Below are positions 188 to 60,588 of a DNA stretch of 64,000 nt, piece by piece. Both the position numbers and the translations under genes were made by a program. The notes below the pieces were generated by a model. That model ran no database searches and was not told the DNA's origin. It saw nothing but the letters and a program-made list of their open reading frames with translations. The stretch's first letter is position 1. Every line of letters begins with the position of its first letter. The DNA comes from an uncultured Dehalococcoidales bacterium. Lineage in GTDB: Bacteria; Chloroflexota; Dehalococcoidia; GIF9; UBA5629. The stretch spans positions 267,919-331,918 of the forward strand of contig CAYNVO010000001.1 of the NCBI GenBank assembly GCA_964400675.1. Direction: 5' to 3'.

Positions 188-946
188 ATGGAATTTTTTG
201 ACCTTATGAGTATCTCACACCGCTATATGGAGATACTAAACCCTTCCACGTCTGAAAAAATCATCAAGCTTGGCACACTACTCAAATTGAAAAAAGGGGA
301 CCGGGTCATCGACTTCGGTTGTGGCTGTGCTGAGCCCCTCACTCTATGGGCTGAGGAATTTGGTATCATTGGTATTGGCATAGATATATCCGAGTATTTC
401 TGCGACCGAGCCAGGAAAAAGCTGGCCATGAGAGGATTGTCGGACCAAATCGAAATCGTTTGCTCCCCTGCGGCTGACTATGTATTTAAAGAGGGGGCTT
501 TCGATGCAGCAACATGTATTGGATCAACGTTTGTTTTTGGCGGTTATCAGCAGACGATCCAGGCAATGAAGAGGGCTGTCCATCAGAGTGGACGCCTTGG
601 TATCGGCGAAACTCATTGGCTTAGCACCCAGATACATCCAGAATATGCCCAAAAACAGACAACTACCCACACAGAAGCGGAACTAGCTCGATTTACCCGG
701 GACGAAGGCTTTGAACTCGAATACATAATCCGTGCAAGCTACGACGATTGGGACAGATACATTTCGGATGGCTGGTATGGACTGATACGTTGGCTTGAGG
801 AAAACCCTAACCACCCTGACTATGAACAAGTATTCAATCATTTTCGTATTGACCAGGATGATTATTTACAGTTCCAACATCAATATATGGGCTGGGCTAT
901 GTACTGCCTCGCTCCCATCAAATCTCATTCGACAGATAGTATATAA
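188..946 (+). CDS. Class I SAM-dependent methyltransferase
   Basis: Glycine-rich motif I VIDFGCGCAEP about 45 aa from the N-terminus; size typical of the family. Confidence 0.7.
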   Translation: MEFFDLMSISHRYMEILNPSTSEKIIKLGTLLKLKKGDRVIDFGCGCAEPLTLWAEEFGIIGIGIDISEYFCDRARKKLAMRGLSDQIEIVCSPAADYVFKEGAFDAATCIGSTFVFGGYQQTIQAMKRAVHQSGRLGIGETHWLSTQIHPEYAQKQTTTHTEAELARFTRDEGFELEYIIRASYDDWDRYISDGWYGLIRWLEENPNHPDYEQVFNHFRIDQDDYLQFQHQYMGWAMYCLAPIKSHSTDSI

Positions 947-1383: not shown

Positions 1384-2658
1384 CTAATTACATATCTTTG
1401 TCAACGCAGTTGTTAGTTCTGGTAATTTCCTATAAGTACTACATACTTGCCAAAGAAGTGCTAAGAGCATGTCGCTACGCCCCTGTGATTTATACATTTC
1501 CAATCTGGGTGTTATGAGTTGTGTCTCATTCAGGTCCAACTTATCAGCAGTGAACCCATTGGTAATAATGCTATTTAATACCTGTTGTATATGATTGAAT
1601 AAAATATCTGAATCGGCTTGCTTTAATTTTGCTTTGAATACGGTGAGAAACATTTTGAATATTTTCTGATATTCTTTAAGTAAGGCAAATTCAGCAGTCA
1701 ATATGATTAGCGGAATCGCAGCTTTATCACATATACTTTTCTTTGTGCTATCTCTTTTTCGCACTTCTTCACTCTCATTAGAGCTTTTGCCATAATGCCC
1801 GCCTCCGTTGTATTCTATTGCTATTTGGATGACACCGCTTTCATCGCATAGAGCAAAATCAAAATGTCCACCCCATAGTAGTTTTTTCTCGCTGTCTGTC
1901 CAATTAATACTCTGTATATCAACGAATGCCTTTATCTCTCTCCCTTGAAAACATTTAAGTGGACTGAGCCAAATTTCGCTAATTACTTTCTTGATTTGGT
2001 TTTCTTGAAAGCCAAAATTAGCTTTCTTTTTAAGTCTATTTCTTTTTTGTGCCTCTTCCTTGATTAGTTCTTCAAGCTCACGATTTCCTTCTGGTTCGAG
2101 CTTGAGTATTTTTTCTTCGATGCTAGTCATCATATCTGCTGCAGCCCATTCGTTGATTACTCTCAGATAGGCTACTTCAAATTTCGATGGGTCACGACCT
2201 TTATCATTCTTAAAGGAAGATATTTCATAGTCAATATCAGTGCACATATCCCAGAAAAGTGGAAAATACATTTCAGCTATTTTCTGCTGGAGCTTTGCAG
2301 GATAACCAGCAATCTGTAATTTGGTCAAAAATCTTAGAAAATCGATGGTAATAGATGCATGATATAGTGGATTATCAAGCCCTTGCTCTACAGGAAATAT
2401 GAGCCCTTTATTGAATAGATCGATTACTTCCTTTTCATTCAGTTTTGTGTTTGCGTATATTACCTCAATCAGCTTCTCTTTAGAGACAAGATTATCAAGG
2501 TCATCATGAAGCATTAGCCTTTCATTAGCAACCATCATGACCATATTCTTGAGAAAGTCTTCACCTTGCATAGGTTTTATACCATTATAAGCTTTCCTAA
2601 ATAACAATGTGGAAAGCCAGGGCAAAAGTTCTTCTTTCCGTCCAGTAAGCCCCACCAT
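1384..2658 (-). CDS. Hypothetical protein with a central Vsr/DUF559/DUF2726-like PD-(D/E)xK endonuclease-fold domain
   Basis: The segment HFDFALCDESGVIQIAIEYNGGGHYG...EEVRKRD...ICDKAAIPLIILT fits the Vsr/DUF559 restriction-endonuclease-like pattern. The gene is AT-rich relative to its flanks, and the remaining ~330 aa are helical and unassigned. Confidence 0.5.
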   Translation of the reverse strand: MVGLTGRKEELLPWLSTLLFRKAYNGIKPMQGEDFLKNMVMMVANERLMLHDDLDNLVSKEKLIEVIYANTKLNEKEVIDLFNKGLIFPVEQGLDNPLYHASITIDFLRFLTKLQIAGYPAKLQQKIAEMYFPLFWDMCTDIDYEISSFKNDKGRDPSKFEVAYLRVINEWAAADMMTSIEEKILKLEPEGNRELEELIKEEAQKRNRLKKKANFGFQENQIKKVISEIWLSPLKCFQGREIKAFVDIQSINWTDSEKKLLWGGHFDFALCDESGVIQIAIEYNGGGHYGKSSNESEEVRKRDSTKKSICDKAAIPLIILTAEFALLKEYQKIFKMFLTVFKAKLKQADSDILFNHIQQVLNSIITNGFTADKLDLNETQLITPRLEMYKSQGRSDMLLALLWQVCSTYRKLPELTTALTKICN

Positions 2659-2791
2659 TAAGCATAAATCATCGACTGATTACTTTTCGACTAGCCAGGA
2701 TTCCCACACACAATTAGCTATCCCATTACATCGTTTGATTGAAGGATTTCTGTTATCCTGCAAAGTAGAGAACAAGTCTTCTGCCACTGCG

Positions 2792-3007
2792 TTACTTGCT
2801 AAAAATCTTAGCATAAAGAGGAATCGCTATCACCAAAGCTACAACAAGAAATATCCACCATGTCCATATTGGCAACCATGTTGCCAGTAGCAACCCTAAT
2901 GCCACCCCAGCAAGAAACTTGACTGTTATCAATAGTAGGAGGTGACATTTTGGTAACTGTCTTAACTTTTCTATCCTCTTATCATACCAACGGACAATAC
3001 TTGCCAT
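2792..3007 (-). CDS. Small two-TM membrane protein (hypothetical)
   Basis: 71-aa ORF with two hydrophobic helices, co-oriented between the ICMT-like gene and the 424-aa gene; it overlaps a + strand ORF that looks spurious. Confidence 0.3.
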   Translation of the reverse strand: MASIVRWYDKRIEKLRQLPKCHLLLLITVKFLAGVALGLLLATWLPIWTWWIFLVVALVIAIPLYAKIFSK

Positions 3008-3308
3008 AGTATTTACCTCCTATCCCTGTTGTGAAACCATTGTACCACCTCCCAGTCAATATGCAAGGGGTTAATTGCTATGGTGAAATGTTCACCAAAT
3101 ACGAGAATCCGGGCATTAGGGAGAAGATACGCCAATCCCTCGAGTGGTTAATTTAAACCACGCAATCTCGCAGATTAGAGGTTTCAAGTGAACGAAAACT
3201 GGCCAGTGTTGTATTCAGATGGTTTGCTATTATCGGTCATATGGTCAGAAGATTAAAGCATATATGAGCAGGCAGTCCTGGATTAATATATTCAGCTTAG
3301 ACTTAACA

Positions 3309-4001
3309 TTACCAGACAAGCGGGATTAGCCGGTATTTCACTTGCCTGGCATACTCTCTATAGCCCGGCATTTCATTTTGCAGCGTGCGGTCTTCCAGAG
3401 CCGTGCGGATTACTATTATTGTTGTCGATATGCCGCTCAGCACAAAACCCCACCATGAACCTAAAATGAATGGATAGGCTAATATTGAGATGATTAAACC
3501 GGCATATCCCGGATGTCTCATTATCTTGTATGGGCCAGAGGTACAAACATATTGATTCCTATCATCCTGGATGCGGACTGTCCACTCAAATAATTTATTG
3601 ACTGCCATGGCCCAGAGCGCGAGCGGAATCACAGATACAAATATAAATATGCCTACGAAAGTTAACCAGAAAGGCATAAACGACCATTGGAATCTAACTG
3701 CATCGAACCCCATGACGACAAGGTTGCCAAGGGTTAATACGGGATAAATGGCTACCCATATCTTATCAAAGCCTTTTGTGCCTTCCTTGACAACGCTGCC
3801 GCGTTCATTCAACATCTCCGGATTCACTCTTGCCAGCACTACTGTACTTATCACCCAATAAATTGAAACCAGGCCCACGTATACCCACGCGTTTATCCAG
3901 GCAAGTGTACCCGCTGATATGAATAAGATAGCAAATCCGATGATGATAAGAATTGATTGTACAATGATTCCTCTAATGCCGAAGCGATTTAGATTGCTCA
4001 T
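3309..4001 (-). CDS. Isoprenylcysteine carboxyl methyltransferase (ICMT/PEMT) family membrane methyltransferase
   Basis: Multi-TM protein with the conserved C-terminal RHPGYAGLII...LGSWWG motif of the ICMT/phospholipid methyltransferase family. Confidence 0.6.
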   Translation of the reverse strand: MSNLNRFGIRGIIVQSILIIIGFAILFISAGTLAWINAWVYVGLVSIYWVISTVVLARVNPEMLNERGSVVKEGTKGFDKIWVAIYPVLTLGNLVVMGFDAVRFQWSFMPFWLTFVGIFIFVSVIPLALWAMAVNKLFEWTVRIQDDRNQYVCTSGPYKIMRHPGYAGLIISILAYPFILGSWWGFVLSGISTTIIVIRTALEDRTLQNEMPGYREYARQVKYRLIPLVW

Positions 4002-4069
4002 CTCTCACCCCCGATACGTTTAAAAAGTATTATACATCTGCATATTTCGTAATGGAATGCCACTATCGT

Positions 4070-4118
4070 AGGACTAAGGGTCAAAAGGTAGTGGGTTCGA
4101 ATCCCATCAGCCCAACCA
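4070..4118 (+). other. tRNA 3' fragment (T-arm plus acceptor 3' strand plus CCA); possible att-site remnant
   Basis: gtggg-ttcgaat-cccat T-arm is followed by cagccca-a-cca. No complementary 5' acceptor strand (tgggctg) and no D or anticodon arm within 90 nt upstream. Confidence 0.45.
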
Positions 4119-4380
4119 CCTGCTTGCATAAGTTTACAAAAGGTGGCTAATTTTTATAAAAATTTCACCTTGTTACCTGCTACACCTTTTAGCGTTTTGC
4201 GACCTTGTCGCAGCGGAAAGTTTGTTGTAGCATAGAGACTAGCTAGCAACATAGGCGTCTCACTGCTAGTCTCACATGGCGTGCTTGCAGTTTCTGCCGT
4301 TCACCAATATACTTAGGATGACCGTAGGTACCTTCACTTAATAGCACTAGGGCAAAGGGGTAACTTAGAACCGGGCAGAA

Positions 4381-5463
4381 TTGCCAGTGGAAATCAATGT
4401 TGGCTTGAAAGCTATTAAAAACGGGGGATTGATCAAAATTAGAGATGTCTCCTTGTGTTCCCTTGTCGTAATACTTGGCGTAATCCTTGTAGTTGCATGC
4501 GCACTTGGCTTAACAACATCTGCCTGTTCTTCGCTGCAACCGGTCTCGCTGCAGTTGCAGTGGGTCACCCAGGCCCAGTTTGCCGGGTACTATGTGGCAC
4601 TGGACAAAGGATGGTACCTCGACGAAGGAATTGACCTGAGTATAAAGCCTGGCGGGCCGGATCTCACGCCTATTGACCTGGTAGTAGACGGAGAGCGTGA
4701 CTTCGGCACCGGCCTGCTGGCTGACCTCTGTATTGCCGTCCAAGAGGGCAAGCCGGTTATAAGTATCGGCCAGATCCAGCAAAAGAACGGGCTACTTCTT
4801 ATTGCTAAAGAAGCTTCGGGTATCAAGCAGCCCAAAGATTTCGTTGGTAAGCGAGTCGGTGTCTGGCTCGGAAGCTGGGAGGCCCAATTCAATACGCTAA
4901 TGGCTAATGAAGGCATTGCATTGCAGGATGTCGAAGTGATATCTCAGGGATTTAGTATGGATCCCTTTATTAAAGGAGACATGGATGTAGCCTCAGCCAT
5001 GATTTACAACGAATACCATACGGTTCTGGAGAGTGGATTAGGAACGGAGGACCTTAATGTCATCGATTATGCCGATTATGGTCTGGGCTTTCCGGGTGAT
5101 ACACTTTTTACCAGCCGCCAGCTAGCCAAGCAGCATCCCGACTTGTGTATCCGCATGCTTCGTGCCAGTCTGCGGGGTTGGCAGTATGCCATAGATTATC
5201 CAGAGGAAGCAGTGGATATCGTGCTCAAGTACGACGAAAGCGGTGTGCAAACCCGGCTGCATCAGCTCTCGATGATGAATGAGATCTCAAAGCTTGTGCA
5301 AGTCCCGAGGCGTGATATTGGATATACGGACCGGACTACTGTAAAGCAGACTATATACATCCTGCGACAAAAGGTAATGAGTGGGCCATTACAGCCTGAG
5401 GATGTATATACTAATGACTTTTGGGAGCAAGCTTACGAACAGCAGGGAGAGACCACCGATTGA
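4381..5463 (+). CDS. ABC transporter substrate-binding protein, NMT1/THI5-like (NitT/TauT family)
   Basis: Signal peptide with a lipobox-like LTTSAC, then LQWVTQAQFAGYYVALDKGWY, typical of NMT1/THI5-like periplasmic binding proteins. The start may lie downstream of the track start. Confidence 0.65.
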   Translation: MPVEINVGLKAIKNGGLIKIRDVSLCSLVVILGVILVVACALGLTTSACSSLQPVSLQLQWVTQAQFAGYYVALDKGWYLDEGIDLSIKPGGPDLTPIDLVVDGERDFGTGLLADLCIAVQEGKPVISIGQIQQKNGLLLIAKEASGIKQPKDFVGKRVGVWLGSWEAQFNTLMANEGIALQDVEVISQGFSMDPFIKGDMDVASAMIYNEYHTVLESGLGTEDLNVIDYADYGLGFPGDTLFTSRQLAKQHPDLCIRMLRASLRGWQYAIDYPEEAVDIVLKYDESGVQTRLHQLSMMNEISKLVQVPRRDIGYTDRTTVKQTIYILRQKVMSGPLQPEDVYTNDFWEQAYEQQGETTD

Positions 5464-5525
5464 CACTCGACTCTTGATGATAGCGATACTTATAGGAAAA
5501 AGAGAAACGGGAAGAGTGCAATCAG

Positions 5526-7301
5526 TTGTGGAGAAGTTGCTGGTATGCGATACTTTCATTGGTTCAGCACCATTGTCGTTCAGTTGTCATTGCCATGAAT
5601 AGCAATACACCAACAAAGAATAGACCAAAGAGCAGGCTAAAATTCAGCATAGCCACTAAGCTCTTAGCTTCCTTTCTTCTATTGCTGGTCGTTTCTTTTG
5701 CCATCATCTGCCTCCTCGTTACTCTTAACATGAAGGAGATACGAAGCTTTGCCGAGGAAAGCAGTATTGCCTTGGGTAATAGCGCAGTCAGCGATAGCAC
5801 CTCAGCACTGGAAGAACTGGGGGAGGCGGCTATAAAACAAAAAGCAATAGATGTATCAAATCAAGTAAAGATATATCTCGAGGGACATCCAGACCTTACT
5901 GCCGACGAAATTAGGAAAGATCCTAACCTCGGCCAGATTGCCGTACAGCCTGTAGGCCAGACGGGTTATACCGCTCTCTACGAAAAAGAAACAGGAATCA
6001 TGAGATTTCATCCCAATCCCAGCCTTATTGATTATGATATGCACGGTTTAAGCGACACGCTTCCTTCATTCTGGATGGTATTTCAACCAAGTCTTAGAGG
6101 CTCTATTTTCAGTGGGTATTATGATTGGGAAGATGCCGATGGAACGATACGACCAAAGTTCATGTATATGGTTCCCGTGGAAGGCACAATCTATATGGTA
6201 GCAGCAACCACGTATATTGATGAATTCTCGCAGCCAGCTATTATTACAAAGAACAAAATTGCGGCGGCAACTTCGCAGGCCATGGCGTACATTGACAGGC
6301 AAATCAAAAATACTCGAAATCTTTTCATAGGGCTTTTGCTGGCTATACTTGTGGTGGTTGTGGGGCTGGTCTTCTGGCTTTCAATAATGATAACCAATCC
6401 CATCAAAGCACTTACCAGGAGTTCTGAAATTATCGGAGGTGGAGACCTGGACTACAAGCTAGAAATAGAAACTGGAGATGAGCTAGAAGATTTGGCAAAT
6501 TCCTTCAATAAGATGGCGTCAGACTTAAAAAGGTATATTGAGGAGCTGCGTATCACTACTGCTGAGAAGGAGCGAATTGCTAAGGAGTTGGAAATTGCCA
6601 GGGGTATCCAGCAGAGCTTCTTGCCTGAGTATCCTCCTGAAGTAAAGGGGGTCGAACTAGCAGCTCTGAACCTTCCAGCTAAAGAGGTGGGTGGCGACTT
6701 CTATGACTTCATCCCCATTGGGCCAGACAAGTGGGGGTTGGTTATTGCCGATGTCTCCGGGAAAGGAATTCCCGCCGCGCTGTTTATGGCACTCTCAACA
6801 ACGCTGGTTCGTGCTAGCGCCACAGGCGGTATAGCACCTGCGAAGGCCATACAAAGAGCCAATGATTTGATTGCCGAGCATGACAAGACAAGCATGTTTG
6901 TGACTTTGTTCTATGGAGTTCTTGACGCAGAGAGGAACACATTCACCTATGTCAGTGCGGGGCATAACCCGCCCTTCGTGCTCGCCGGTTGTGGCAGCGA
7001 CACCATAATGCTGCAGGCTAAAGGAATCGCTCTGGGTGTAGTCCCCGACATTGGCCTGGAGGAAAAGGAAATCACTTTGAGCAGTGGGGATGTTGTTGTT
7101 CTCTATACAGATGGAGTAACCGAGGCTATTAACAACGAGGAAGAGCAATTCGGCCAAAGCAGACTGCTCGCCATAGCCGAGCAATTCCGTAGCCTTTCGG
7201 CCTCCGATATTATAAAACGAATTCAACAAGAAGTGTTTGAATTCAGTAGCGGACAGCCGCAATTCGATGACTTCACTCTGATGGTACTAAAAATTGTATG
7301 A
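5526..7301 (+). CDS. Membrane sensor PP2C-family serine phosphatase (TM, extracytoplasmic domain, TM, HAMP, SpoIIE/PP2C)
   Basis: Two TM helices flank a ~220-aa domain, followed by a HAMP-like segment and a C-terminal PP2C/SpoIIE region (GDFYDF...VIADVSGKG...YTDGVTE). An alternative start at ATG 5595 is possible. Confidence 0.75.
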   Translation: MWRSCWYAILSLVQHHCRSVVIAMNSNTPTKNRPKSRLKFSIATKLLASFLLLLVVSFAIICLLVTLNMKEIRSFAEESSIALGNSAVSDSTSALEELGEAAIKQKAIDVSNQVKIYLEGHPDLTADEIRKDPNLGQIAVQPVGQTGYTALYEKETGIMRFHPNPSLIDYDMHGLSDTLPSFWMVFQPSLRGSIFSGYYDWEDADGTIRPKFMYMVPVEGTIYMVAATTYIDEFSQPAIITKNKIAAATSQAMAYIDRQIKNTRNLFIGLLLAILVVVVGLVFWLSIMITNPIKALTRSSEIIGGGDLDYKLEIETGDELEDLANSFNKMASDLKRYIEELRITTAEKERIAKELEIARGIQQSFLPEYPPEVKGVELAALNLPAKEVGGDFYDFIPIGPDKWGLVIADVSGKGIPAALFMALSTTLVRASATGGIAPAKAIQRANDLIAEHDKTSMFVTLFYGVLDAERNTFTYVSAGHNPPFVLAGCGSDTIMLQAKGIALGVVPDIGLEEKEITLSSGDVVVLYTDGVTEAINNEEEQFGQSRLLAIAEQFRSLSASDIIKRIQQEVFEFSSGQPQFDDFTLMVLKIV

Positions 7302-7477
7302 GTCGAACGATAGTTTGCGAAGGGAGTGGTAACCTGGATTATAAAAGAATTTGAAAAAGGTTAAGGTAGAACTCATTTGCTATTTATAGTATTTGCCAAG
7401 GTTGGCATTCTGTGAATTGAAGTCTCCTTAGAAGCTACACATGACAAGGATGGTGAATATCATGGATTAGTGAAGAA

Positions 7478-7541
7478 GAGGGACTGTTCAGCCTGGGCGA
7501 AAGCTCCTCCTTCCGTCCAGTAAGCCCCACCATTTAGAAGA
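7478..7541 (-). pseudogene. Duplicated 5' fragment of the 1384..2658 gene family
   Basis: 27 bp identical to the start of the 424-aa gene (tccgtccagtaagccccaccat) plus ~35 bp similar downstream. It encodes MVGLTGRKEEL... then terminates after 33 codons. Confidence 0.5.
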
Positions 7542-7747
7542 TATCATTACCACAAATCAGCTGCGGTTTATCGCAAAATCCCCAGACCTGCTGGTTTTTC
7601 TTCGTAGGAGGGGCATTATAACCTCAAAATGCAAAGTTCGTCATGTTGTTTAGTGTAGGTGGCAAAGCGGCTTCTGTTAAAAGGGCTGCAGGATTAAAGG
7701 GCTGTTGGGTGTAGAGTTAGTAATCTACTCCCATAGTATTCTGAAAG

Positions 7748-10700
7748 CTAGTAGCCCTGAAAGCGTCTTCTGGAGATTATTATCAGCAAGCCCACCAGTA
7801 TAACAATAACAGCTATCGCAGCTACAAACAATATGCCTTCACCTATTCCTTCACCTATTCCTGCACTCGGTCCTCTGCTAGCACCGTTAACAGTGAAACT
7901 CCCTCTCTGGTCATCAATACTGACAGTATAAGTCCCTGGCTGAGTTTTAGCGATTGTGAACTTCACCGGCTGTGTACCCTGTGGACCAACGCTAACCATC
8001 CTGCTTTGCTCTACCTGTCCGTTTATCTTGAGGGTGAGATTATAGTTACCAGCCTCGTAACCGGTGTTGACAACATTGGTGGTGATAGTCACTGGCTGAC
8101 CAGCCGTTGTCTGCTGCGGGTTTACGCTCAGGTACTGCAGCGACATCTGAGCCGGATTAAGCGGACGAGGTGGTGTAGGCATTGGCGGTGAGGCTCGTGG
8201 TGCTGCTGGCATCGCTGGTGCTGCTATCGTTGGCCCGCCCGGGTCAACGATGGTGCCGTTGGCTGCTCCATCAGCATCGCCAAGCCCACCATCGGTTAAG
8301 GTGAGAGTTAGGACGTTATCGCCATCGTTACTGCCCACAAGGGACGTGCAATTTACCCATATCCCGTTCTGGCACTTCCAGTACTGGGTGCTTGCAGGCA
8401 TGCTGTAAGGAAGCGTAATGGTTATGGTCACTGTTGAGCCCGGGGTAATATTGGTGATGTTAAACGAGAAGAAGCCGTTGGGGAAGCTGAAGCCTGAGAG
8501 GGTTCCGCATGGAGTGGAGATTGCAGCGGTTAAGCCTGTGACGGAACCGCCGCTGGTGGTAAAGGTGGCAATGCCGGTGTTCGTGGCAGTGTTTACGCTC
8601 TGGGTTTGCTCGCCTGCTCTGTTAACGGTAAAGCCGTCGCTCAGAGTATCGGTTCCCGCAGGGGTGGTTACCGTGACATCCCTGGTACCGGGTGAAGCAT
8701 AGGATAGGATAGTGATATTGGCAGTTATCTGGGTATCGCTGTCCTCAGTAAAATTATCGGCTGTGACATAGCTGCCAAAGCCGCCAAATTTGACCGATGT
8801 AACGCCGCTAAAATGGGTGCCTGTTATGATGACGTCAAGTGTCTCGCCCTGGATGCCGGAGGTCGGATTTACACCGGTTACAGTGGGGGGTGCTTTATTT
8901 ACGGTGAACCCGCCAGTCAATGTGCCGGTGCCCCAGGGCGTTGTCACCGAGACATCCCTGACGCCAGTTGCCGCGTCACCGGCGATGGTTATATTGGCGC
9001 TTATCTGAGTGGCGGAGTCAAACGTGAAGTTGTTGACTGTTACGCCAGCGCCGAAGCTCACTGCCGTAGCTCCGTTGAAATCGGTGCCTGTTATGATGAC
9101 ATCGAGCGTTTGCTCCTGGATGCCGGAGGCAGGATTTACACCGGTTACAGTGGGTGGTGGTAGTGGCGCTGATGTATTTAGCAGTACCGAGACATTGTTG
9201 TCGTCATTATTAGCCACGGCGAGGTCGGGCTTGCCATCCCTGTTGAAATCGCCCACGGAGACGGAGCGGGGGTTTGTTCCCGCAGTATAGTTGTCCGCGG
9301 CGCGGAAGGTGCCGTCGCCATTGCCCAGCAGCACGGAGACATTGTTACTGTTAAAATTAACCACGGCCAGGTCGGGATTACCGTCCCTGTTGAAATCGCC
9401 CACGGCAACAGAGAAAGGGAATAACCCCGTGGCATAGTTCCCTGCCCCATTGAAGGTGCCGTCGCCATTGCCCAGCAGCACGGAGGTATTGGCACTGTTC
9501 TTATTAGCTGTGGCCAGGTCGGGGTTGCCGTCCTTGTTGAAATCGCCCACGGCGATGTAGACAGGCTCTGTTCCTACTGGATAGTCCACTGCCTGTAAGT
9601 TGAAGGTTCCGTCACCCACGCCGAGCAGCATGTAGACGGAGTTATTACCAGCATCGGTCACGGCCAGGTCGGGCTTGCCGTCCCGGTTGAAATCGCCCAC
9701 GGCAACAGAGTAGGGGACTCCCCTCGCGTCATAGGGCGCTGTGCTGAAGGCGCCGTTGCCATCGCCCAGCAGTATGGAGTAATTGACACTGCCAGAATTA
9801 GCTGTGGCAAGGTCGGGCTTGCCGTCCCTGTTGAAATCGCCCACAGCGACACAGAAGGGTAAATCTCCCACAGCATAGTTCACCGCGTCATCGAAGGTGC
9901 CATTGCCATCGCCCAGCAGTATGGAGACATTGTCGTCATTAACATTGGCTGTGGCGAGGTCGGGGTCACCGTCCCGGTCGAAATCGCCTGCGGCGATAGA
10001 GACAGGGCTTCTCCCCACGGCGTAGTTCAGCGGCGTGTTGAAGGCGCCGTTGCCATCGCCCAGCAGTATGGAGACGTTGTCGCTGCTCGAATTAGCCGTG
10101 GCCAGGTCGGGCTTGCCGTCCCTGTTGAAATCGCCGACTATGGTTGAGAAGGGGCCTGTTGCCGTGGCATAGTTCGCCGCGGCATTGAAGGAAAGGCTCT
10201 CCGGTGTTGCAGTATTAAGTAGAATGGAGACATTGTTTGTGCCGGCATTGGCTGCGGCGAGGTCGGGATTACCGTCCCTGTTGAAATCGCCCACGGCGAC
10301 ATACCAGGGGAAATGATCCACAGCATAGTTCACCGCCCCATTGAAGGTACCATTGCCATTGCCTAGTAGCACGGAGACATTGTCTGTGCTGGCATTGGCG
10401 GTGGCTAAGTCGGGGTTGCCGTCCCGGTTGAAATCGCCCACGGCTACAGAGTAGGGGCCGTTTCCCACGTCATATTTCACTGCCGGTAGGGTGAAGGTGC
10501 CGTCGCCCACGCCCAGCAGCACGGAGACATTGTTGGTGGTGTTATTGGCTGTGGCCAGGTCGGGGTTGCCGTCCCGGTTGAAATCGCCCACGGCTACAGA
10601 GTAGGGGTGGTCTCCCACATTATAGACGACCGCCGCTTTGAAGGTACCGTCGCCCTTACCCCGCAATATAGAGACAGTGTTTGCGCTATTATTGGCTACG

Positions 10701-11419
10701 GCCAGGTCGGGATTGCCGTCCTTGTCGAAATCGCCCACGGCAACAGAGGTGGGAGTCAACCCCACGGCATAGTTCGCTGCCGGTAGGATGAAGGTGCCAT
10801 CGCCGTTGCCCAGCAGCACGGAGACATTATTGTTGTTATGATTGGCTGTGGCCAGGTCGGGATTGCCGTCCCTGTTGAAATCGCCCACGGCGACAGAGAA
10901 GGGTAAATCCCCCACAGCATAGGTCGCTGCCTGTACGATGAATGCACCGGCGCCGTTGCCCAGCAGCACGGAGACATTGTCGTCGTCACAATTAGCTACG
11001 GCCAGGTCGGGATTGCCGTCCCTGTTGAAATCGCCCACGGCTACAGAGAGGGGGCTTCCCCCCACGGCATAGTTCGCTGCCGGTAGGGTGAAGGTGCCGT
11101 CGCCGTTGCCCAGCAGCACGGAGACATTATCGCCGTTACTATTGGCTGTGGCCAGGTCGGGATTGCCGTCCTTGTCGAAATCGCCCACGGCGACAGAGAA
11201 GGGACTTGTTCCCACGTTATAGTTCACCGCTGGATTGAAAGGCATGGCATAGGCATTGTACTGGGGAAAGGCAAAAAATAAGGTACAAAGAAGCAATGAA
11301 AGGAAAACACTTATAAGTTGCTTATTTGGACAATTTCGCTTAGCCAATTTACATGTACCAGCCTGCAAAGATGCCACCATGAAACTTATATATACGTTTG
11401 AAAAAAGCACAGATGCCAA
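7748..11419 (-). CDS. Large cell-surface protein: ~14 FG-GAP/VCBS repeats, two Ig-like (TIG) domains, a CARDB domain, C-terminal TM anchor
   Basis: N-terminal signal peptide; recurring VGDFNRDGNPDLA...NVSVLLGNGDGTF units; C-terminal GEGIGEG, a hydrophobic helix and an RRR tail. Near-identical ~140 bp DNA repeats generate many overlapping spurious ORFs. Confidence 0.8.
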   Translation of the reverse strand: MASVLFSNVYISFMVASLQAGTCKLAKRNCPNKQLISVFLSLLLCTLFFAFPQYNAYAMPFNPAVNYNVGTSPFSVAVGDFDKDGNPDLATANSNGDNVSVLLGNGDGTFTLPAANYAVGGSPLSVAVGDFNRDGNPDLAVANCDDDNVSVLLGNGAGAFIVQAATYAVGDLPFSVAVGDFNRDGNPDLATANHNNNNVSVLLGNGDGTFILPAANYAVGLTPTSVAVGDFDKDGNPDLAVANNSANTVSILRGKGDGTFKAAVVYNVGDHPYSVAVGDFNRDGNPDLATANNTTNNVSVLLGVGDGTFTLPAVKYDVGNGPYSVAVGDFNRDGNPDLATANASTDNVSVLLGNGNGTFNGAVNYAVDHFPWYVAVGDFNRDGNPDLAAANAGTNNVSILLNTATPESLSFNAAANYATATGPFSTIVGDFNRDGKPDLATANSSSDNVSILLGDGNGAFNTPLNYAVGRSPVSIAAGDFDRDGDPDLATANVNDDNVSILLGDGNGTFDDAVNYAVGDLPFCVAVGDFNRDGKPDLATANSGSVNYSILLGDGNGAFSTAPYDARGVPYSVAVGDFNRDGKPDLAVTDAGNNSVYMLLGVGDGTFNLQAVDYPVGTEPVYIAVGDFNKDGNPDLATANKNSANTSVLLGNGDGTFNGAGNYATGLFPFSVAVGDFNRDGNPDLAVVNFNSNNVSVLLGNGDGTFRAADNYTAGTNPRSVSVGDFNRDGKPDLAVANNDDNNVSVLLNTSAPLPPPTVTGVNPASGIQEQTLDVIITGTDFNGATAVSFGAGVTVNNFTFDSATQISANITIAGDAATGVRDVSVTTPWGTGTLTGGFTVNKAPPTVTGVNPTSGIQGETLDVIITGTHFSGVTSVKFGGFGSYVTADNFTEDSDTQITANITILSYASPGTRDVTVTTPAGTDTLSDGFTVNRAGEQTQSVNTATNTGIATFTTSGGSVTGLTAAISTPCGTLSGFSFPNGFFSFNITNITPGSTVTITITLPYSMPASTQYWKCQNGIWVNCTSLVGSNDGDNVLTLTLTDGGLGDADGAANGTIVDPGGPTIAAPAMPAAPRASPPMPTPPRPLNPAQMSLQYLSVNPQQTTAGQPVTITTNVVNTGYEAGNYNLTLKINGQVEQSRMVSVGPQGTQPVKFTIAKTQPGTYTVSIDDQRGSFTVNGASRGPSAGIGEGIGEGILFVAAIAVIVILVGLLIIISRRRFQGY

Positions 11420-58773: not shown

Positions 58774-59361
58774 CTATCCTACACCCCTGGCGTGCATTCT
58801 TGCCATGTATTTATTGAACATTCTTTGCTTACGCTCTTCTTCAACTTTTCCTTTGCAGATTTGTCTGAGCCGATTGCACTCTTTCAGTGTACTCCAATCC
58901 ATAGCAATTTTTTGCTCTTCCTTATATACTTCCAAAGCCCCCGATTGGAAACGCTGTAAATAACTCTTTTGTTTTGGTAGTACTATTATGACTTTCTTTC
59001 TATAATTTGGAAAAGGTGCAATTATTTCAAGCTCTCTATACACTCCTCCTTGACGAGTTGGGCTCGCAAGTACAAGTGCTATTACTAGGTCTGCAGTATC
59101 CACGTGGGTTAATTCTGCATAACCGAGCTCAATAGAAGTGCTAGACTGAAGTCTGAACAATTCTTCACATGTACGTACTTCGTCTTTTTCCTCCTTTTCC
59201 CGAGATAGTTCTTTTAATGCATCTATTAGATTAGTTCTCTTTGTAAGCCATTCTTCATTACCAGTCTCTCCAGGCCCTAACACTAATACTCTAAGGTCTA
59301 CCCAAAGGTCATTAAGTAGCTCGGAAGATTCAGTAGACCAAGAAGAACCACCGCTTGTCAT
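58774..59361 (-). CDS. Hypothetical protein C of a three-gene operon; SLOG/LOG/NDT-like Rossmannoid signature
   Basis: RVLVLGPGETG early strand and ...LVIALVLASPTRQGGVYRELEIIAP, reminiscent of the PGGxGTxxE (LOG) / DSGTAFELG (nucleoside 2-deoxyribosyltransferase) motifs; AT-rich. Confidence 0.45.
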   Translation of the reverse strand: MTSGGSSWSTESSELLNDLWVDLRVLVLGPGETGNEEWLTKRTNLIDALKELSREKEEKDEVRTCEELFRLQSSTSIELGYAELTHVDTADLVIALVLASPTRQGGVYRELEIIAPFPNYRKKVIIVLPKQKSYLQRFQSGALEVYKEEQKIAMDWSTLKECNRLRQICKGKVEEERKQRMFNKYMARMHARGVG

Positions 59362-59366
59362 TATTT

Positions 59367-59870
59367 CTATATTATCGCTTCCTTTGATATTGCTTTAAGT
59401 TTGTTCAGATCAGCCAAGGCAGCCTGACCTTCTGGGGTAATCCTAAGTGTTGAGTCTAATACCTGCAAATAGTCGGCCCTTACCAAAAGAGCAATCTTAA
59501 GCCAATACCTATACTCGCCGATATGATCAGCTAGTTGGTCCACTCCAAAATATTCTTTCTCAGTGAATAGTTCCAAAAACCTTAGGCAATCACTGTCCAT
59601 TAAAGCATTTGCTTTTGCGTGTTGGTTTCTTATGGAATCTTCGTCCTCTTCATGACCTCGGAGAAGGCCACTTTTATCTTCTTTCTCAGTGATCTCTTTT
59701 GGTGATGATGCGGTACCGAAGTCAACATATCCTATTGTGATGTCTTCTTCACTCGGACTTACCCAAGATACTCCAGTTATACCTTCCTTTTCCTCCCAAC
59801 TAATTTGTTCGGGTTGTCGTTCAGGTAAATCAGTCTGATAACTATCTTTTAATCGAACTATTCTAGCCAT
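59367..59870 (-). CDS. Hypothetical protein B of a three-gene operon (acidic N-region, C-terminal winged-helix-like)
   Basis: 6-nt gap to gene C, 8-nt overlap with gene A; no recognisable catalytic motif. Confidence 0.4.
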   Translation of the reverse strand: MARIVRLKDSYQTDLPERQPEQISWEEKEGITGVSWVSPSEEDITIGYVDFGTASSPKEITEKEDKSGLLRGHEEDEDSIRNQHAKANALMDSDCLRFLELFTEKEYFGVDQLADHIGEYRYWLKIALLVRADYLQVLDSTLRITPEGQAALADLNKLKAISKEAII

Positions 59871-60588
59871 CGATTTCCTCCAATAAGCGTGCTCCTATTT
59901 TCCCCAGCATTTCGTACTCTATGTCCGCTGCTGACTTCAAAAATCCAGCTGTTTCATTCCTTGATATAGTATTTGGCTCTTCCCTTCTCCAATATACGTC
60001 TACATCAAAAAGTAATCCGTCGGACGGATAATCTACCGGATCCTTGGGTTCCCTTAATAGTCTTATATTGTTCATACGTAAGACCCCAATGTACTTTTTG
60101 ATCGGGAAACGAACTGCATATTCTATCCCTACATCCTCTTTCTTCTCTACTTCTGCGATTATATCTTGAAGTAATACCCCAGAAATTATCTTTGCTAGTG
60201 ACGTTGATGATTTAACAATGTTTTCTGTTTCCACAAAGAATTGAGACCGCAGTCCTAGGGTCCTGAAATTCTTCACCTCAATATCTTTTGCGATTCCAGT
60301 AATCCATTCAGGTGCAGTATCGACAACGTGGGTCAATGAATCTATAAGAGCATAACGCAACCATATCGTGTCAGCTGAGAATCTGATTTCGTAGGGATCT
60401 GCATCTTCCCTCCTTTGACTTAATAGACAACCCCCTGGGTCTATGTTGTGTTGTTTGTAGAATTGCCCAATTCTATTTAGTGTCAATCCTGCTGAATCCA
60501 AGTAACGGTAACCTTTTACTGTCTTTGCTTGTGTAAAAGCCTGGTGCAAAGTCCATTTTTTCTTTCCATTTCTCGCTGTCTTTTCCAT
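59863..60588 (-). CDS. Hypothetical protein A of a three-gene operon
   Basis: 241 aa, first gene of an AT-rich operon; no recognisable motif. Confidence 0.4.
   Translation of the reverse strand: MEKTARNGKKKWTLHQAFTQAKTVKGYRYLDSAGLTLNRIGQFYKQHNIDPGGCLLSQRREDADPYEIRFSADTIWLRYALIDSLTHVVDTAPEWITGIAKDIEVKNFRTLGLRSQFFVETENIVKSSTSLAKIISGVLLQDIIAEVEKKEDVGIEYAVRFPIKKYIGVLRMNNIRLLREPKDPVDYPSDGLLFDVDVYWRREEPNTISRNETAGFLKSAADIEYEMLGKIGARLLEEIDG

Follow-up and report, generated by a model that had tools for sequence, protein, structure and literature searches.

DUF2726 (PF10881) is a large nuclease family of which, to our knowledge, no member has been characterised in cellular genomes; typical members are 150-300 amino acids (aa) long and carry a membrane anchor or other N-terminal modules. 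In the Vsr/DUF559/DUF2726 branch of nucleases, loss of the classical Lys is normal, and His and Asp take over its role. DUF2726 has been associated with mobile elements, and active-site variation among PD-(D/E)xK nucleases has been described (PMC3424549). It was also described as a restriction endonuclease (REase)-fold DNase fused to abortive infection (Abi)-type N-terminal domains, as in AbiJ-NTD3-DUF2726 (Anantharaman et al. 2013, PMC3710099). Here, a DUF2726-family gene was investigated in a 64,000-nucleotide (nt) stretch of DNA from an uncultured Dehalococcoidales bacterium (Chloroflexota; GenBank assembly GCA_964400675.1, contig CAYNVO010000001.1, positions 267,919 to 331,918), which is referred to as the window. 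The catalytic domain is known already, as is the frequent combination of DUF2726 with varied N-terminal modules; the new features are an architecture with two domains lacking detectable relatives and the restriction to Dehalococcoidia. The reading that we favour, tentatively, is that the gene would encode an active metal-dependent endonuclease of the Vsr/DUF559/DUF2726 branch, acquired horizontally as islet cargo and serving in genetic conflict.

Residues are numbered according to the 395-aa form of the protein, and numbering in the longer open reading frame (ORF) is obtained by adding 29. The gene was divided into the following parts:

1384 to 2571, minus strand: coding sequence almost certainly in use, 395 aa and stop (homolog starts, ratio of nonsynonymous to synonymous substitution rates (dN/dS), 395-aa public calls)
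1552 to 2016, minus strand: predicted Vsr/DUF2726-type PD-(D/E)xK nuclease domain, aa 186-340 (PF10881, 437 core-only distant matches, BFVD fold matches, PHROGs)
1723 to 1866, minus strand: catalytic motif block (translation, family alignment)
2017 to 2571, minus strand: N-terminal all-helical domain, aa 1-185 (AlphaFold2 (AF2) model of the domain alone; no outside relatives)
2278 to 2490, minus strand: sub-region probably shaped like a MerR winged helix, aa 28-98 (Foldseek, hhalign)
1384 to 1551, minus strand: C-terminal helical tail, aa 341-395 (AF2 helices; no outside relatives)

The Pfam model of DUF2726 matched ORF residues 265-322 with E=4.4e-9 (36.6-36.8 bits, against a gathering cutoff of 24.7), and it matched all 27 family members, the best with E=1.1e-11. 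Foldseek searches against BFVD matched phage DUF2726 proteins over about 130 columns, with a root-mean-square deviation (rmsd) of 3-5 Å and prob 1.0. A Vsr/DUF559/DUF2726-type domain had been proposed for this part of the protein in the first-pass annotation, and both the Pfam match and the BFVD fold matches bore it out. Coverage of the profile by HMMER was partial (positions 57/58-110 of 126 aligned), and the family differs from other DUF2726 proteins in aligning with the C-terminal half of the Pfam profile alone; HMMER left unaligned the preceding helix and strand (E190, R211, K214), which are conserved and present in the AF2 model. That model, built with the family alignment, had a mean predicted local distance difference test score (pLDDT) of 83.7 and consisted of a helical N-terminal domain (aa 1-179), a linker of low confidence leading into an alpha-beta core (aa 188-315) that is trailed by two helices, and a helical tail (aa 347-394). 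The order of secondary structures in the core (helix 188-200, strand 206-208, helix 226-234, strand 239-242, strand 248-255, helix 264-283, strand 288-292), together with the BFVD matches, was that of the alpha-beta-beta-beta-alpha-beta core of PD-(D/E)xK enzymes. Structure prediction, suggested earlier as a check, supported the nuclease fold, by the AF2 model and by Foldseek alike.

Across 27 sequences sharing 39-60% identity, D238, H259, D274, K277, C281 and K283 were invariant, and E253 and R273 were near-invariant (≥90%) in the family alignment; in ORF numbering, the catalytic residues are D267, E282, H288 and D303. Strand 2 carries D238 and strand 3 carries E253; H259 belongs to the GxGH loop, and the helix after it bears R273, D274 and K277. 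The motif block reads HFDFALCD...IEYNGGGHYG...RKRDSTKKSICDK (translation checked) and holds all of D238, E253, H259, R273, D274, K277, C281 and K283. It has the pattern of the Vsr/DUF559/DUF2726 branch, D ... E.x.G..H followed by an RD helix, and is also present in stand-alone DUF2726 proteins. With the latter, the family shares a core above the gathering threshold and the motifs ..DF..D, ..E(Y/L)(D/N/Q)G..H, RD..K and AG(I/V)P, as well as a mobile-element association and an undefined cellular role.

Conservation of a D...E...K triad, also suggested earlier as a check, was found in part: the acidic residues and His were kept, and the canonical Lys of (D/E)xK was absent, the position after E253-Y being occupied by N, D, H or Q. 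From the alignment, K277 and K283, both invariant on the next helix, could act as substitutes for it. The missing Lys, the net acidic character of the protein and the suggested regulator-like MerR fold would all suit a catalytically inactive protein that uses the PD-(D/E)xK fold only for binding nucleic acid or protein, for example as a regulator. However, this loss is normal in the branch, as described above, and the invariance of D238, H259, D274 and K277 and near-invariance of E253 at such divergence speak against inactivity, which we regard as very improbable. Considering nuclease activity alone, the conserved motifs indicate that the product is likely an active metal-dependent DNA endonuclease.

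The N-terminal domain, when modelled alone by AF2, was all-helical with a pLDDT of 89.8 and a predicted template modelling score (pTM) of 0.84. Its residues D23, D24, H71, W107 and D112 were invariant, and E152 was near-invariant (≥96%). The C-terminal tail consisted of the AF2 helices at 347-394 with the conserved motif R.DMLLALLWE (translation checked). Among 1.84 billion cluster representatives, neither the N-terminal domain nor the tail had relatives outside the family, and neither flank received a family assignment in Pfam, NCBIfam, PADLOC or the large profile search. Earlier, the flanks had likewise been called unassigned, and an N-terminal region of about 250 aa had been given; the first statement held, and the length is really about 185 aa once the 29 spurious residues are removed and the first helix and strand of the nuclease are counted with it.

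A search of 5.8 billion proteins returned 29 relatives, nearly all of 385-408 aa, and the family comprised about 30 protein clusters overall. The profile search of the 1.84 billion cluster representatives gave 437 matches, with only about four full-length clusters at 50% identity (P0021, P0023, P0025 and P0030) plus fragments; all the remaining matches were confined to about residues 205-340, the DUF2726 core. Alternative architectures were considered for the partial matches to the N-terminal domain only and were rejected, since these fragments were frameshifted or truncated copies of the same gene. Because the outside matches were core-only and the fragments were broken copies, the N-terminal 185 and C-terminal 55 residues are unique to the family. 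This helical N-terminal domain and helical tail, found nowhere else, set the family apart from other DUF2726 proteins. The AbiJ-NTD3-DUF2726 fusions resemble it in being single genes with a variable, family-specific N-terminal domain followed by a DUF2726 nuclease, often in conflict contexts; however, AbiJ-NTD3 is an alpha+beta domain, whereas the N-terminal domain here is all-helical with a MerR-like shape, and no sequence similarity was found between them.

The Foldseek list of Protein Data Bank (PDB) matches for the N-terminal domain was dominated by winged helix-turn-helix (wHTH) proteins of the MerR family (NmlR, CueR, MtaN, BmrR, SoxR, GlnR/TnrA and CbpM). These matches were weak (best E=0.07, prob 0.87, template modelling (TM) score 0.3-0.5), those to TnrA/GlnR having an rmsd of 4-5 Å over about 83 columns. 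In hhalign, family residues 44-94 corresponded to CueR 12-62 (recognition helix, wing, alpha3 and alpha4), with P=0.05 against CueR alone and P=3e-4 (prob 40%) against a small MerR profile, which was composed of two PDB-verified sequences and eight further ones, each with E<3e-8 against CueR. The CueR query was identical to PDB 1q05, and a large-database search with CueR returned only close CueR orthologs, of little use for profile building. None of the 27 members matched the Pfam MerR models (PF13411 / PF00376) at E≤10. On these structural comparisons, a MerR-like shape of aa 28-98 is somewhat probable.

The MerR proteins, including the protein-binding CbpM, were the best structural matches of aa 28-130, and a long helix follows, as do the dimerisation helices in MerR proteins. 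Unlike them, the family has no MerR-type effector-binding C-terminal domain and no Pfam MerR match, and carries acidic residues in place of the basic and aromatic contacts. The MerR DNA-contact positions were conserved as acidic in the family (E46, E48, D51, D/E62-64 and D68), the basic and aromatic contacts were absent, and the mean net charge of the MerR-like region was -1.9. Because these positions are conserved as acidic, canonical DNA binding is doubtful, and classical DNA binding through this region is unlikely. CbpM provides a precedent for a MerR fold that binds a protein.

Only 2 of 185,579 species-representative genomes carried the gene, both of them Dehalococcoidia metagenome-assembled genomes (MAGs); the family is extremely rare and confined to Dehalococcoidia. 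The housekeeping proteins of the window itself grouped with those of Chloroflexota/Dehalococcoidia. Wherever dS was unsaturated, dN/dS was 0.12-0.25, a range of purifying selection that shows the gene to be functional. Frameshifted or truncated copies were found occasionally (P0026 at L011 5569-6701, P0031, and P0032+P0034), P0031 being a near-identical relative of the window protein that is out of frame after residue 186. On account of such copies the gene is dispensable; either it has been lost or degraded in some lineages or these copies contain assembly errors. A housekeeping nuclease of Dehalococcoidia for DNA repair or recombination (Vsr-like mismatch or structure-specific) would agree with the Vsr-type fold and with the gene contexts in L001, where the gene lies a few genes from mutL between core-metabolism operons, and in L001 and L011, where it lies near carbon monoxide dehydrogenase/acetyl-CoA synthase (CODH/ACS) genes. 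This is the least probable of the readings considered, given the rarity of the family, its foreign composition, the lack of conserved synteny, the existence of frameshifted copies and the lack of any PDB sequence match to Vsr even with the family profile.

No Pfam match at E≤10 was obtained for Vsr (PF03852) or DUF559 (PF04480), and solved Vsr, DUF559 or I-Bth0305I chains (including 3hrl and 3r3p) gave no PDB sequence match with either the single sequence or the family profile; the PDB sequence searches with the protein and with the profile returned only chance coiled-coil matches. NCBIfam gave nothing meaningful. The BFVD range that matched phage DUF2726 proteins also matched DUF559 proteins and a 'group I intron-associated VSR homing endonuclease', and the PHROGs families of homing and intron-encoded nucleases matched the core with E 1e-7 to 3e-5. 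Vsr, DUF559 and the VSR-type homing endonucleases (I-Bth0305I type) belong to the same branch of the restriction-endonuclease fold and likewise have His and Asp for the classical Lys. Unlike Vsr, the window gene has no linked cytosine methyltransferase gene, unlike a homing enzyme it has no intron, and its flanking domains differ from those of both.

The nearest annotated relatives of the core are thus phage proteins named 'homing endonuclease', 'intron encoded nuclease' and 'group I intron-associated VSR homing endonuclease', and they raise the alternative of a free-standing, homing-endonuclease-like selfish gene, which would cut a specific site in genomes lacking it and spread by recombinational repair without benefit to the host. 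Solitary insertion between unrelated genes, including housekeeping operons, is in line with such a gene, as are the patchy distribution, the AT-richness and the occasional frameshifts. However, the likeness is limited to the shared catalytic fold, the N- and C-terminal domains being unrelated; there is no intron or intein context, and the family was absent from phage records and IMG/VR, with one domain-only match among plasmids. The insertion site was different in every locus rather than being one cognate site, the putative DNA-reading surface is acidic, and the dN/dS of 0.12-0.25, seen across deep divergence, points to selection maintained over time, which would not be typical of homing genes in decay. 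We consider a homing gene unlikely.

The start of the gene and its surroundings involve three further features:

2572 to 2658, minus strand: 29-codon 5' extension, almost certainly spurious (absent from homologs; encoded by the recurrent element; promoter-like site within)
2584 to 2613, minus strand: sigma-70-like promoter match TCCACA-18-TATAAT (10/12 consensus match)
700 to 2700, no strand: AT-rich block (GC profile)

The open frame extends without interruption over 424 codons (1384-2658, minus strand), and a 424-aa protein had been reported in the first-pass annotation. Instead, the true protein almost certainly has 395 aa (1384-2571, minus strand, start ATG 2571-2569), because the homologs start at M30, the extension is a recurrent non-coding element and a promoter-like site lies inside it. 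In the family alignment, 22 of the 26 full-length homologs begin at ORF M30 (MQGEDF...), and ORF residues 1-29 have a counterpart in none of the 26. The first 29 codons are part of a non-coding element that recurs in 17 unrelated metagenome contigs, where its copies have a constant first base and no conserved reading frame; they are almost certainly a read-through artefact of an open frame running into the neighbouring element. The best sigma-70-like match of the region agreed with the consensus at 10 of 12 positions, which is a consensus match only and no proof of function; its -10 TATAAT falls within the extension, with its end at 2584, 13 nt before ATG 2571. Public gene calls disagree on the start (P0331, 424 aa; P0001, 423 aa; P0332, 395 aa). 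Three public calls have 395 aa, and the 423- and 424-aa calls, including that on the 490-kb NCBI contig carrying the window, contain 28-29 residues translated from the adjoining non-coding element. This systematic 29-codon over-extension in public gene calls is a lesson for annotation.

The GC content of the gene was 36.4% (33.6% at third codon positions, GC3), compared with 49.7% for the window, and the earlier description of it as markedly AT-rich was correct. Neighbouring genes had 44-55% GC, with the exception of a 71-aa ORF (2792-3007, 39%). The AT-rich block at about 700-2700 (about 37-40% GC) contained only the DUF2726-family gene and flanking intergenic DNA. The composition of the gene is foreign; together with the rarity of the family, its occasional frameshifted copies and the adjoining att-type (attachment-site) repeat described below, it speaks for an accessory gene, most likely acquired horizontally.

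At the right end of this block lies a repeat, of which two copies were found:

2597 to 2658, plus strand: direct repeat 1, 3' fragment of the element (profile positions 58-118; nhmmer E=5e-19)
7490 to 7533, plus strand: direct repeat 2, shorter diverged 3' fragment (profile positions 76-118; nhmmer E=7e-8)

A truncated second copy of the 5' end of the gene had been reported 4.9 kilobases (kb) away, and a multi-copy or formerly mobile gene family had been deduced from it. The shared stretch was only 58 nt (2615-2672 against 7490-7547, 84% identity), occurred in two copies in the window, and did not extend further. The 58-nt repeat was rejected as a gene fragment, as it lies upstream of the real start at ATG 2571 and is the 3' fragment of a separate conserved element. 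Since the repeat is outside the gene and belongs to a separate element, it gives no evidence on gene copy number, and the deduction of a multi-copy family falls with it; no other similarity to the gene was present in the window.

The 23-nt core of the repeat was found in 17 metagenome contigs (L015-L031). The conserved unit is about 120 nt long (in the plus orientation of the window) and has a sharp end at ...GTAAGCCCCACCA, immediately before a T. It holds a promoter-like TTGCGC-17-TACAAT, by our own reading of the alignment; downstream of this motif there is a 73-nt unit with one stable hairpin, GGCGGAAAG...CUUUCCGUC, inside GGGCU/AGCCC, and a CACCA tail. The z-score of the hairpin was -1.9 to -5.0 in six loci. 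No transfer RNA (tRNA) or transfer-messenger RNA (tmRNA) was matched by ARAGORN, and no Rfam family was matched at the gathering threshold or at E≤5; a resemblance to signal recognition particle (SRP) RNA, seen by eye, was not borne out. The neighbours of the 3' end of the element included a large serine recombinase on the reverse strand (L017), an AbiEii/AbiEi pair (L016) and a MazF toxin (L015). Examples of element copies are L024 1804-1918 and L016 2912-3008 and 4965-5026; in L016, a full-length copy, a 1.96-kb AbiE islet and a second 3' fragment formed an attL-islet-attR arrangement (att, attachment site). Neither the element nor the DUF2726-family gene was found in viral contigs. From this comparison of loci, the element looks like an undescribed small-RNA gene acting as an integration (att) hotspot in Dehalococcoidia, and it may be a more original observation than the protein.

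Direct repeat 1 includes 48 nt that are 100% identical to the inter-contig consensus, and it abuts the promoter region of the gene. Metagenome contig L012, from the same organism (100% identical over 2,657 nt), breaks exactly at this repeat. Neither the window nor the adjoining 3.3 kb on its left contained a full-length copy of the element. The profile search also found no copy in the other loci of the protein family, and the element was therefore rejected as a general companion of the family. The view of the 4.9-kb segment between the copies as an island with a full gene at one end and a fragment at the other was rejected too, as both copies are 3' fragments. The data support that the AT-rich block with the gene is the right end of an integrated islet, so that the island remnant proposed earlier gained support on different grounds, namely that the AT-rich block ends at an att-type direct repeat.

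The segment between the two repeats (2659-7489, 4.8 kb, 45.5% GC) is bounded by direct repeats and has no integrase. It contains genes for the 71-aa membrane protein, a PEMT/ICMT-like methyltransferase, an NMT1-type binding protein and a HAMP-SpoIIE phosphatase, and it may represent an islet that was accreted or can be mobilised in cis.

The ssrA-specific islands of Dehalococcoides have 3'-end direct repeats, a reverse-strand serine recombinase and low-GC cargo (McMurdie et al. 2011, PMC3146451). With respect to the flanking repeat, and not the protein, the present arrangement resembles them in that the 3' end of a small RNA-like gene recurs as direct repeats bounding tandem islets, in the recombinase of L017, in low-GC cargo and in the host class. 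In contrast, the target here is neither tmRNA nor tRNA, the repeats have 43-62 nt against the 20 base pairs published, and no integrase is present in the window.

Twelve distinct homolog contexts were compared systematically. The gene is a stand-alone accessory gene, often but not always located in defence or mobile regions. In L006, L034 and L007, it was 29 nt upstream of a pair encoding an M78 peptidase (RmrA-like) and DUF4411. In L006 and L034, it was also 29 nt downstream of a gene for a 971-989-aa N6-methyltransferase protein (weak PADLOC matches only), and in L007 a true type IIG restriction-modification (RM) enzyme (PADLOC E=1.5e-264) was encoded about 1.3 kb upstream, with two small genes between. 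A GajA/OLD-like ATPase-nuclease adjoined the family gene in L013, a large serine recombinase and an SNase gene were present in L014, and a DUF4062 gene followed the family gene in another contig. Homologs lacking catalytic residues and lying uniformly in housekeeping contexts had been named in the first-pass annotation as evidence that would count against its proposal; such evidence did not emerge, since several homologs lay in defence or mobile contexts.

In the divergent clade, a 203-aa protein was encoded 14-43 nt downstream of the family gene (L008 6597-7208 and L013 4138-4749; 69% identical between the two loci); it was not assigned to a family by Pfam, PADLOC or PHROGs and may be a partner or immunity protein of that clade only. 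These neighbours raise the alternative that the protein serves as effector or toxin within a multi-gene system, the other subunits of which lie elsewhere or have been lost in this genome, the candidates being the RmrA-like M78 peptidase with DUF4411, the large upstream methyltransferase and the 203-aa protein. The 29-nt spacing both upstream and downstream of the gene in L006 and L034, the recurrence of this downstream pair in L007, where the upstream gene differs, and the close spacing and similarity of the 203-aa proteins would fit such a system. However, each candidate is limited to one sub-clade, and none is present in the window, L001, L002, L009, L014 or L032; the M78 and DUF4411 genes are themselves a recognised type of two-gene module that needs no third gene (established knowledge; PADLOC RmrA match), and the window gene is intact and under selection without a partner. 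A multi-gene system is accordingly judged quite unlikely. The adjoining methyltransferase of the window (188-946) was rejected as an RM partner, being a small-molecule, class I enzyme of the UbiE/CMAS type with normal GC.

The recurrent tight array of N6-methyltransferase, DUF2726-family gene, HTH-M78 peptidase and DUF4411 (L006 1875-7728, L034 391-5902 and L007 79-7489; HTH, helix-turn-helix) was observed in its own right; it may represent either a composite defence island or a multi-gene unit that functions as a whole in that sub-clade.

Two other regions of the window were noted. A surface protein of 1223 aa with FG-GAP/VCBS-type repeats is encoded at 7748-11419 (minus strand), by a gene with many tandem units of about 147-150 nt, in which a 40-nt core occurs up to 14 times; in L009, the family member adjoins a similar FG-GAP/subtilase protein. 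The other region, at 58774-60588 (minus strand), is a second AT-rich block (41-42% GC) that consists of three consecutive ORFs (195, 167 and 241 aa) without a Pfam match. It is flanked by genes for an RNase J-like metallo-beta-lactamase (MBL) protein and an MscS-type channel, and it, too, may have been acquired as a cassette.

In the reading that we tentatively favour, the gene would have been brought horizontally into a Dehalococcoidia-type (Chloroflexota) genome by a small integrative islet that carried it as cargo. The N-terminal domain would be a regulatory or sensing module that also mediates dimerisation by way of its long helices and holds the nuclease inactive until a trigger arrives, and not a classical DNA-reading head; the C-terminal helical tail would assist it in regulating or targeting the nuclease. 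The protein would then act against invading DNA as a single-gene nuclease of the restriction-like or abortive-infection-like kind. A conflict role is suggested because the architecture of a variable N-terminal sensor with a DUF2726/REase effector is recurrent, and the RM, RmrA-like, GajA/OLD-like, recombinase and DUF4062 genes beside several homologs speak for it as well. A more specific version is possible and distinctly less likely: a single-gene anti-phage or anti-plasmid system specific to Dehalococcoidia, in which the acidic MerR-fold N-terminal domain, with its invariant Asp/His cluster, would sense an invader protein or nucleic-acid signal and release the Vsr-type nuclease, and the islets would integrate at the 3' end of a hairpin RNA gene of about 75 nt, a new att target like ssrA.

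Several points weigh against a role in conflict. No PADLOC-DB v2 defence model matched at E≤10 (0 families), and no neighbour was common to the whole family in the 12 contexts, which are not uniformly defence-like. The gene in L001 is solitary between CODH/ACS, NADH-dehydrogenase and mutL genes, a non-defence context, and in the window its neighbours are the UbiE/CMAS-type methyltransferase and the four genes of the 2659-7489 segment. Most of the defence neighbours come from one sub-clade, and shared ancestry may account for part of the association. A role of the N-terminal domain as sensor is pure inference, the statistics behind its MerR-like assignment are weak (Foldseek E=0.07, hhalign prob 40%, no Pfam MerR match), and a solitary nuclease would need some means of sparing its own genome.

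Because the family has a compact, conserved three-domain form with clear catalytic residues and a confidently folding N-terminal module, it offers a tractable entry point to the function and control of DUF2726. The RNA-like repeat may mark an unrecognised integration hotspot and would then be useful for delimiting genomic islands in Dehalococcoidia. These bacteria are hard to culture, and little is known of their defence systems and mobile elements; a nuclease with ties to RM, Rosmer-like and Gabija-like neighbours would enlarge the picture of defence in Dehalococcoidia.

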